The position numbers and the translations under genes are program-made. A DNA stretch of 2,009 nucleotides from Escherichia coli (GTDB lineage Bacteria; Pseudomonadota; Gammaproteobacteria; Enterobacterales; Enterobacteriaceae). The DNA is taken from assembly GCF_003334355.1 (NCBI RefSeq), contig NZ_QOWP01000078.1. One strand, 5' to 3'. Shown piece after piece: positions 1 through 746 of the stretch. Under the pieces are notes generated by a model. It ran no database searches, was not told the origin of the DNA, and worked only from the letters and a program-made list of their open reading frames with translations. How positions within the stretch are numbered: the stretch's first letter is position 1; every line of letters starts with the position of its first letter.

Positions 1-330
1 CTGCGGTTTTTCAACTATTCAGATACATCACTCCCATCACATTCATTCCTCCGCATCATAGGCATATAGGCTATATCACCTTGATATTTTTCTTCTTCAG
101 ATAAAAACTGTTATCTATGTATACTTTTAAACCCAATCTGTGTAGAGTCTCTGCATAAGATAGTTTGCAGTTGCCGCTTCAGCTTGCGCCATAAACCGCC
201 TGATTTTTGCTGCCACCTGTTAGCATTCCTGTATACCTGAAACGACAATGTTTATCTACGAACTTTAAGAACACCCAAGATAAAAATTGTCAACTATATC
301 ATATATAACACATTACTAATTCGAGGCTAT

Positions 331-444
331 ATGAACAGCATACTGATAATCACATCTCTCCTTATCATATTCAGCATTTTTAGTCATGCCCTAATAAAAT
401 TAGGGATTGGCATATCCAATAACCCAGACAAAACCGATGTATAA
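331..444 (+). CDS. Candidate small ORF, 37 aa, hydrophobic N-terminus (possible small membrane peptide or upstream leader peptide); could be a chance ORF in AT-rich DNA
   Basis: ATG 331 preceded by GAGG (323-326) at a 4-nt spacing; translation [37 protein letters not shown], stop TAA at 442-444. Residues 4-18 form a signal-peptide- or transmembrane-like hydrophobic stretch. Below the size cutoff of the supplied ORF track. AT-rich DNA yields Ile/Leu/Phe-rich frames by chance, hence the low confidence. Confidence 0.2.
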
Positions 445-512
445 GTCAACATATCCTGAATCAGACATACAATATCGCAATGAAAATCAATAATATTTTA
501 AGGAATATCTTC

Positions 513-746
513 ATGAAATCAAAAGACACCCTAAAGTGGTTCCCTGCGCAGCTTCCTGAAGTAAGAATTATCCTAGGGAATGCTGTAGTGGAAGTAGCAA
601 AACAGGGAAGACCTATCAATACCAGAACATTGCTTGATTACATTGAAGGAAACATAAAGAAAAAATCATGGCTGGATAACAAAGAATTATTACAAACAGC
701 GATATCAGTTCTTAAAGACAACCAAAATTTAAATGGTAAAATGTAA
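513..746 (+). CDS. ydfK: Small 77-aa prophage-borne protein of unknown function, YdfK/YnaE-like (cold-shock-associated small protein of cryptic prophages Qin/Rac, recalled from memory). The ORF track starts at ATG 480 (88 aa), but ATG 513 is the more likely start.
   Basis: Open frame 480-746 with in-frame ATG at 513 preceded by AAGGA (500-504) at an 8-nt spacing; ATG 480 has no recognisable Shine-Dalgarno. From 513 the product is exactly 77 aa (MKSKDTLKWFPAQLPEVRIILGNAVVEVAK...). Position directly upstream of a Pin-like recombinase matches the ydfK-pinQ / ynaE-pinR arrangement as I remember it. No recognisable catalytic or DNA-binding motif. Confidence 0.6.
   Translation: MKSKDTLKWFPAQLPEVRIILGNAVVEVAKQGRPINTRTLLDYIEGNIKKKSWLDNKELLQTAISVLKDNQNLNGKM

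Follow-up and report, generated by a model that had tools for sequence, protein, structure and literature searches.

Is the 37-codon open reading frame (ORF) at 331–444 of a stretch of Escherichia coli DNA a genuine gene, and, if so, does it act through its peptide or through an effect of its translation on the small gene that follows? The DNA analysed here, referred to as the window, comprises 2,009 nt of contig NZ_QOWP01000078.1 (RefSeq assembly GCF_003334355.1). A preliminary description, made from the sequence alone, regarded the ORF as unannotated and liable to be missed by default annotation, and ascribed to it a signal-peptide-like hydrophobic N-terminus. It proposed either a small single-helix membrane peptide, type I toxin-like or of phage origin, or a regulatory upstream ORF (uORF), with the caveat that AT-rich DNA produces such frames by chance.

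Results

The ORF is the known prophage gene ynaM/ynfT

The ORF is already known: it is ynaM/ynfT, which encodes a small protein of E. coli prophages. RefSeq places a CDS named ynaM (WP_120795384.1, "YnaM/YnfT family protein") at exactly the coordinates of the ORF, and the peptide is identical to both YnaM (b4744, Rac prophage) and YnfT (b4748, Qin prophage) of E. coli K-12 MG1655. The peptide matched Pfam PF23676.1 "YnaM" over positions 1–37 of 37 (96.1 bits, E = 7e-28), NCBIfam NF041477 with 63.9 bits (curated cut-off, 35), and phrog_35882, a PHROG family of unassigned function, with 72.7 bits, and its UniProt entry is YNAM_ECOLI. With entries in all four resources and a CDS in RefSeq, the ORF cannot be called unannotated. 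The expectation that annotation would miss it holds in part, since RefSeq calls the ORF but six of the 11 phage records with the ORF in their sequence have no CDS there. A PDB search with the peptide returned no match.

At the nucleotide level, the ORF of the window is the same as K-12 ynfT, K-12 ynaM differs from it at three synonymous third positions, and the flanks differ from those of both K-12 copies at a few positions. The two K-12 genes have the same neighbours as the copy in the window, namely ydfK/ynaE, pin and tfa, and nothing substantial differs. In the window, ynaM is followed by ydfK, a pin-type invertase gene (1063–1653) and, on the opposite strand, the last part of a gene for tail-fibre assembly, so that it lies in a prophage context 5′ of ydfK/ynaE and the pin invertase. 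The coordinates of the features are given in Table 1.

Table 1 Features of the ynaM–ydfK region in the window.
Feature	Position	Strand	Details
Candidate ynaM promoter	281–309	+	Inferred; −35-like TAAAAA at 281–286, 17-nt spacer, −10-like TATAAC at 304–309
Shine-Dalgarno GAGG	323–326	+	Read from the sequence; 4 nt (CTAT) to the ATG
ynaM/ynfT CDS	331–444	+	37 codons and TAA; ATG at 331, TAA at 442–444
Predicted transmembrane helix	340–396	+	Codons 4–22; Kyte-Doolittle and Hessa scales
Basic residue K23 and conserved tail	397–441	+	Codons 23–37; most conserved part of YnaM
Spacer between ynaM and ydfK	445–512	+	68 nt; ydfK Shine-Dalgarno AAGGAA at 500–505
ydfK/ynaE-type cold-shock gene	513–746	+	77 aa; RefSeq; usually follows ynaM

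Thousands of E. coli genomes give matches to the window as a whole; those with the highest full-length identity (99.9%) have it at the uspF-side, Rac-type site. The ynaM region was found in 2807 of 5426 complete E. coli genomes, where the module sits beside uspF, ydfJ, prfC-dinI or a methyltransferase gene. Among 60 annotation rows, sampled evenly down the ranking of E. coli genome matches, 59 carried the YnaM/YnfT annotation, and the one exception was a copy truncated by IS1. In addition, the window matches the free-living lambdoid phages mEp460, Kati, Turner, Tritos and 2H10 and the PhiR series; in Kati, ynaM lies in an accessory region beside lom-stf-tfa. The proposed phage origin is thereby confirmed, as ynaM is carried by lambdoid phages and prophages of both E. 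coli and Salmonella.

Two other features were noticed in the 3′ part of the window. The Rfam family IS009 (RF02111) matched 1785–1983 on the minus strand with 220.9 bits (gathering score 117); this match falls wholly within the part of the tail-fibre assembly gene that codes for the C-terminus, and IS009 may be a small RNA candidate model that really covers coding sequence. A promoter-like TGTACA-16-AATAAT at 976–1003, 5′ of the invertase gene, is the exact string proposed for pinR/pinQ in an RpoD gSELEX study (PMC3946193).

YnaM is translated and accumulates

YnaM is translated into a 37-residue peptide that is fairly abundant. VanOrsdel et al. 2018 (PMC6001520) printed the exact peptide for ynaM and for "ynfQ", which is ynfT because the coordinates coincide. 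Both YnaM and YnfQ were among 36 small proteins detected on immunoblots with chromosomal SPA tags, and both were positive in a tetracycline ribosome-profiling screen (PMC6001520). In stationary-phase LB cultures, YnaM-SPA was above most newly found small proteins (Weaver et al. 2019, 10.1101/511675). These reports establish a real small gene, as the preliminary description had suspected. The tag itself (SPA, about 8 kDa) might prolong the life of a YnaM peptide that is otherwise short-lived. No functional study of YnaM was found in the searchable literature.

The start codon of ynaM had neither retapamulin nor Onc112 ribosome density in the study of Weaver et al. 2019 (10.1101/511675). In two ribosome-profiling papers, reads from the near-identical pairs ynaE/ydfK, pinR/pinQ and tfaR/tfaQ were excluded or randomly assigned. 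Since K-12 has two near-identical copies of ynaM and such reads were handled in this way, the absent start peak is probably an artefact of multi-mapping. The lack of an initiation peak, which the preliminary description had listed as evidence against the ORF, is an unsafe criterion for ynaM, and for duplicated prophage genes in general an absent start-site peak is no reliable refutation.

The amino-acid sequence of YnaM is under purifying selection

The geometry of the ORF is as described previously, from its ATG and the GAGG 4 nt upstream to the hydrophobic core and polar tail. The caveat that such a frame is a non-coding product of chance draws on the local G+C content of 32% and on matched Markov-1 random sequences, in which 7.4 ORFs starting with ATG and reaching 37 aa or more are expected per 2 kb; the length of the ORF alone is not significant. 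The combination of such an ORF with a Shine-Dalgarno sequence and a 19-mer of mean Kyte-Doolittle hydropathy of at least 2.0 was expected only 0.008 times per 2 kb, a figure whose criteria were chosen post hoc, with the ORF already seen.

Comparison of copies is far more informative on this point. Across 11 aligned E. coli copies, the 114-nt ORF had seven variable sites, of which six were synonymous third positions and one gave S18G, and neither indels nor stops occurred, whereas the 330 nt 5′ of the ORF had 52 variable sites in the same copies. The GAGG was unchanged in 11 of 11 copies, and Salmonella-type copies have GAGG at equal spacing wherever the contig reaches that far. Salmonella phage 118970_sal3 carries a 37-codon ynaM homologue with the same GAGG spacing, 5′ of a ydfK that is 87% identical. 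The two ynaM sequences have 23 differences, distributed 4/4/15 over the three codon positions, and the ynaM frame is the sole frame open in both. The Nei-Gojobori method gave dN 0.099, dS 1.27 and an omega of 0.078, as low as that of ydfK itself against the Salmonella copy (0.086).

In a pooled set of located copies, 60 of 61 were intact, with 14 nucleotide haplotypes and nine peptides; some contigs were fetched twice, and, as the tail motif served to locate the copies, the set is biased towards intact tails. Its 32 variable sites were distributed 8/6/18 over the codon positions. Positions 25–34 and 36 were invariant among the nine peptide variants from E. coli and Salmonella. The amino-acid sequence of YnaM is thus under strong purifying selection. 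Both comparative checks proposed in the preliminary description therefore came out in favour of the gene, substitutions being synonymous-biased across homologous loci and the frame being kept in nearly every located copy.

The one copy that was not intact, in contig L014, was considered as a case of gene decay and rejected: single-base indels are scattered through ynaM as well as ydfK, and several lie in homopolymers, a pattern that looks like assembly error and hence is not evidence of decay. The same indels, at 2930–3420 of L014 (GCA_052869775.1), gave rise to a spurious 32-aa "YnaM" representative, P0018, in the protein collection.

With a detected protein, an omega of 0.078, an intact frame in all copies but one with assembly-type indels, and a distant homologue of equal length (contig L074, described below), the reading of the ORF as a chance frame is refuted.

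A perfect 7-bp palindrome, CCCTAAT-AAA-ATTAGGG, was observed at 389–405, within codons 20–25 of ynaM. It is absent from the Salmonella copy and is thus probably incidental.

YnaM is a predicted single-helix membrane peptide with a conserved polar tail

Full-length YnaM has a calculated mass of 4010 Da. Its most hydrophobic 19-residue window, residues 4–22, had a mean Kyte-Doolittle value of 2.52, and the unweighted Hessa-scale sum over these 19 residues was −1.83, although that of a 21-residue window was slightly positive (+0.33) and Ser, Thr and His are present inside the helix. In YnaM, about 19 or more consecutive residues are thus hydrophobic, a segment predicted to be able to span the bilayer. 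Downstream of K23, the peptide ends in the polar tail SNNPDKTDV.

The family appears very narrow in sequence searches: phmmer against 1.84 billion representative proteins returned only four hits, all at least 81% identical to YnaM. In tblastn searches against phages, alignments covered only residues 23–37; the low-complexity filter apparently masked the hydrophobic part, so that tblastn was unable to reach distant homologues. A distant member that phmmer had missed was found in the viral contig L074 by anchoring on ydfK, the YdfK of L074 being 53% identical to the query YdfK. The L074 peptide, MNMLIFLIPLGGLVVFITMALALTRLGIAISNNQDDY, has 37 residues when read from the second ATG of its frame, which a strong AGGAG precedes; it is 46% identical to YnaM and scored 21.9 bits (E = 1.3e-4) against PF23676. 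Kept in L074 are the hydrophobic helix, the basic residue and LGI[GA]ISNN[PQ]D, which together give the full motif [KR]LGI[GA]ISNN[PQ]D. The hydrophobicity of the helix is maintained in the Salmonella copies and in L074 despite changed sequence, which upholds, as a prediction, the single-helix shape given in the preliminary description.

The orientation of the helix can be predicted from its flanks. The only basic residues of YnaM, K23 and K34, are both C-terminal to the helix, and the N-terminus is either uncharged (MNS in E. coli, MNM in L074) or acidic (MDN in Salmonella). By the positive-inside rule, these features suggest an N-out/C-in topology, a prediction that depends on one or two basic residues.

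The same flanks bear on the idea that the N-terminus is a cleavable Sec signal peptide, with residues 1–20 removed after S-H-A to release a 17-residue periplasmic peptide. The hydrophobic stretch has about the length of an h-region, and small residues occupy −3 and −1 (S18 and A20; S and A in Salmonella, G and A in the S18G variant). However, the positively charged n-region of a Sec signal peptide is absent, as no Lys or Arg occurs before position 23 and the Salmonella copies even have Asp at position 2. Moreover, an S18I variant exists, the L074 equivalent of the putative site is T-M-A followed by more hydrophobic residues, the hydrophobic run of YnaM itself extends beyond the putative cleavage site (LI-K-LGIGI), and no cleavage of YnaM has been reported. 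The term "signal-peptide-like" is therefore inappropriate, and we regard cleavage as extremely unlikely.

ynaM has a candidate promoter of its own

Homology with phage 118970_sal3 begins near 277–279, about 50 nt 5′ of the ATG. The only upstream block common to both consists of AGATAAAAA and TATAAC/CATAAT, at equal distance from the ATG, and this block is also kept in the Salmonella-type viral contig L095, from which ydfK is absent. The shared block suggests a weak promoter at 281–309 with a short leader, and would imply a transcription start near 316. This site scored 8/12 in a relaxed hexamer scan and was not reported by a stricter promoter scan. The hexamers given for ynaE and ydfK in gSELEX work lie some 700–1000 nt further upstream, beyond the window, and so are uninformative on the local promoter.

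ynaM and ydfK are neighbours but separable genes

The preliminary description placed the ORF in the RNA 5′ of a small gene, and ynaM indeed lies upstream of ydfK on the same strand. The size of the gap depends on the start of ydfK. The published intact masses of YdfK and YnaE, 8772.78 and 8745.75 Da (PMC5594050), fit 77-aa forms and misfit an 88-aa ORF starting at 480. Since the masses match the 77-aa forms, ydfK starts at 513 rather than at the ATG at 480, which leaves 68 nt between the two genes. This spacer had only three variable sites among the 11 E. coli copies, and no terminator-like site was found between ynaM and ydfK.

Chen et al. 2007 (PMC2189734) predicted a 17.1-bit cluster of Fur sites at +8 from the old ydfK/ynaE start. 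Judging from the coordinates, the old start was probably the ATG at 480, and the predicted cluster would then correspond to the AT-rich segment ATGAAAATCAATAATATTTTAAGG at 480–503, between the ynaM stop codon and the ydfK Shine-Dalgarno sequence. This AT-rich segment was observed to be much conserved in the Salmonella phage copy.

This arrangement raises the possibility that ynaM is a regulatory uORF, in which the act of translation, and not the peptide, controls ydfK through leader structure, Rho access or Hfq binding. Its place in an RNA earlier classed as the 5′ leader of ydfK/ynaE is shared with leader peptides and uORFs, and several observations agree with such a role. ynaM lies 68 nt 5′ of ydfK with no terminator between them, and the two genes are found paired in E. 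coli, Salmonella and the distant L074 locus alike. As related in PMC5089854 and PMC4152368, Raghavan et al. 2011 observed short ynaE/ydfK leader transcripts and proposed them to be riboswitch-like; Bilusic et al. 2014 (PMC4152368) found that ynaE/ydfK leader transcripts co-immunoprecipitate with Hfq. The region of this Hfq-binding "leader" encodes YnaM. In addition, ydfK/ynaE is published to be strongly regulated, being induced by cold and in long-term stationary phase.

On the other hand, a pure uORF needs neither the low omega of ynaM nor a tail motif that is kept down to 46% identity, and YnaM accumulates to easily detected levels. The region 300–530 showed no excess of RNA fold stability over shuffled sequences on either strand (z = −0.79), and ynaM lacks an attenuator-type structure as well as a terminator. 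The two genes also occur apart. Among about 25 ydfK homologues of 53–66% identity, from Klebsiella, Enterobacter and Erwinia plasmids and viral contigs, no ynaM-like ORF or tail motif was present in any frame, L074 being the exception. Conversely, L095 and L096, both Salmonella-type viral contigs, lack ydfK and yet carry at 1444–1557 an intact ynaM, preceded by the upstream block and the Shine-Dalgarno sequence; the homology ends just past the ynaM stop codon, and a tail-fibre assembly gene comes directly next. Since ynaM and ydfK each occur alone, ynaM is a gene of its own and not merely a leader ORF. Neither obligatory coupling of ORF and gene nor excess RNA structure was found, and the peptide is under purifying selection; we therefore consider a purely regulatory uORF unlikely. 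It is possible that YnaM has a dual role, as a peptide and with a secondary leader effect on ydfK.

Several observations concern YdfK itself and relate to the window (513–746), to L074 (1490–1726 on the minus strand and 2131–2424 on the plus strand) and to L019. A profile-free search of genome contigs with the single YdfK sequence found only two E. coli loci, and Pfam contained no family for YdfK. There is a hint that YdfK might belong to a wider family of small cold or stress regulators. YdfK gave a weak, sub-threshold match to the regulator YcgZ (NF040640, E = 0.009), more small ORFs with a similar ILGxAV-type motif were observed beside the ydfK-like gene of L074, and on a plasmid of Klebsiella variicola only some 0.9 kb separates a ydfK-like gene from lpxP, which is cold-induced. 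At position 579 of the window, residue 23 of YdfK is Asn (AAT), whereas it is Asp (GAT) in 10 of the 10 other aligned copies; the viral contig L021 shares Asn23.

YnaM is unlikely to be a type I toxin

Small hydrophobic peptides that are sometimes borne on prophages include the type I toxins Ldr, TisB, Ibs, ShoB and Hok, and type I toxins are normally kept untranslated. YnaM resembles them in its size, its helix and its location in a prophage, and might accordingly damage the inner membrane and be silenced by an antisense RNA; from a promoter-like match on the minus strand (522 to 495), transcription would run antisense to the ORF. However, promoter-like matches were at chance level, with seven found against 5.0 ± 2.7 expected from shuffled sequences. 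No Rfam family matched at ynaM on either strand, neither strand folded better than shuffled sequence (z = −0.79 for the minus strand), and YnaM had no match in PADLOC. The sequence-based search thus found neither an adjacent or overlapping antisense RNA nor a structured leader. In addition, translation is not kept off in normal growth, as tagged YnaM is readily expressed and accumulates from its native chromosomal locus in LB with no harm reported, and its tail is a conserved polar motif, more than a short charged end. The comparison with type I toxins made in the preliminary description thus finds no support in the expression, the tail or the search for antisense RNA, and such a toxin is very unlikely.

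Discussion

We propose, with a probability of roughly 80%, that ynaM, a gene of its own in lambdoid prophages, encodes an accessory peptide that crosses the inner membrane once and acts on a larger membrane protein. In the lysogen, a weak promoter some 15–50 nt upstream of the ORF would drive ynaM, and the RNA could run on into ydfK and so double as the ydfK leader. In the peptide, residues 4–22 are predicted to span the inner membrane; the short uncharged or acidic N-terminus would be periplasmic, and K23 and the conserved tail would be cytoplasmic. YnaM would then bind and modulate a larger membrane protein through its helix and juxtamembrane tail, and thereby provide an accessory "moron" function that serves the lysogen or the phage. 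The position beside lom-stf-tfa fits a "moron" role.

Modulation of a larger membrane protein is the most likely mode of action by analogy with AcrZ, MgrB, MgtS, CydX and KdpF, small inner-membrane proteins of E. coli that modulate larger membrane proteins. Like these, YnaM has fewer than 50 residues and one predicted transmembrane helix and was detected by SPA tagging, and its C-terminus is most likely inside. It differs from them in having no sequence relationship to them, in being encoded by prophages and in belonging to a very narrow family.

A more specific proposal, tentative and rather doubtful, is that YnaM is a lysogenic-conversion factor whose tail [KR]LGI[GA]ISNN[PQ]D binds a host inner-membrane protein and whose mRNA also serves as the Hfq-binding leader that sets ydfK. 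If this is true, YnaM could block the entry of superinfecting phage DNA or adjust the envelope in the cold or in long stationary phase, and a single 200-nt module would be a dual-function RNA.

The locus is a useful positive control for genome scans, as reading of the raw sequence found a genuine 37-codon gene below classical ORF-length cut-offs. What is new here is incremental: an omega estimate, the conserved motif of the tail, a distant homologue that likewise has 37 residues, the occurrence of ynaM and ydfK apart from each other, and the connection with the Hfq-binding leader. These points leave the classification of YnaM unchanged and offer a starting place for its functional study. YnaM is among the better-expressed small proteins of E. 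coli, is present in about half of the complete genomes and is strongly constrained.
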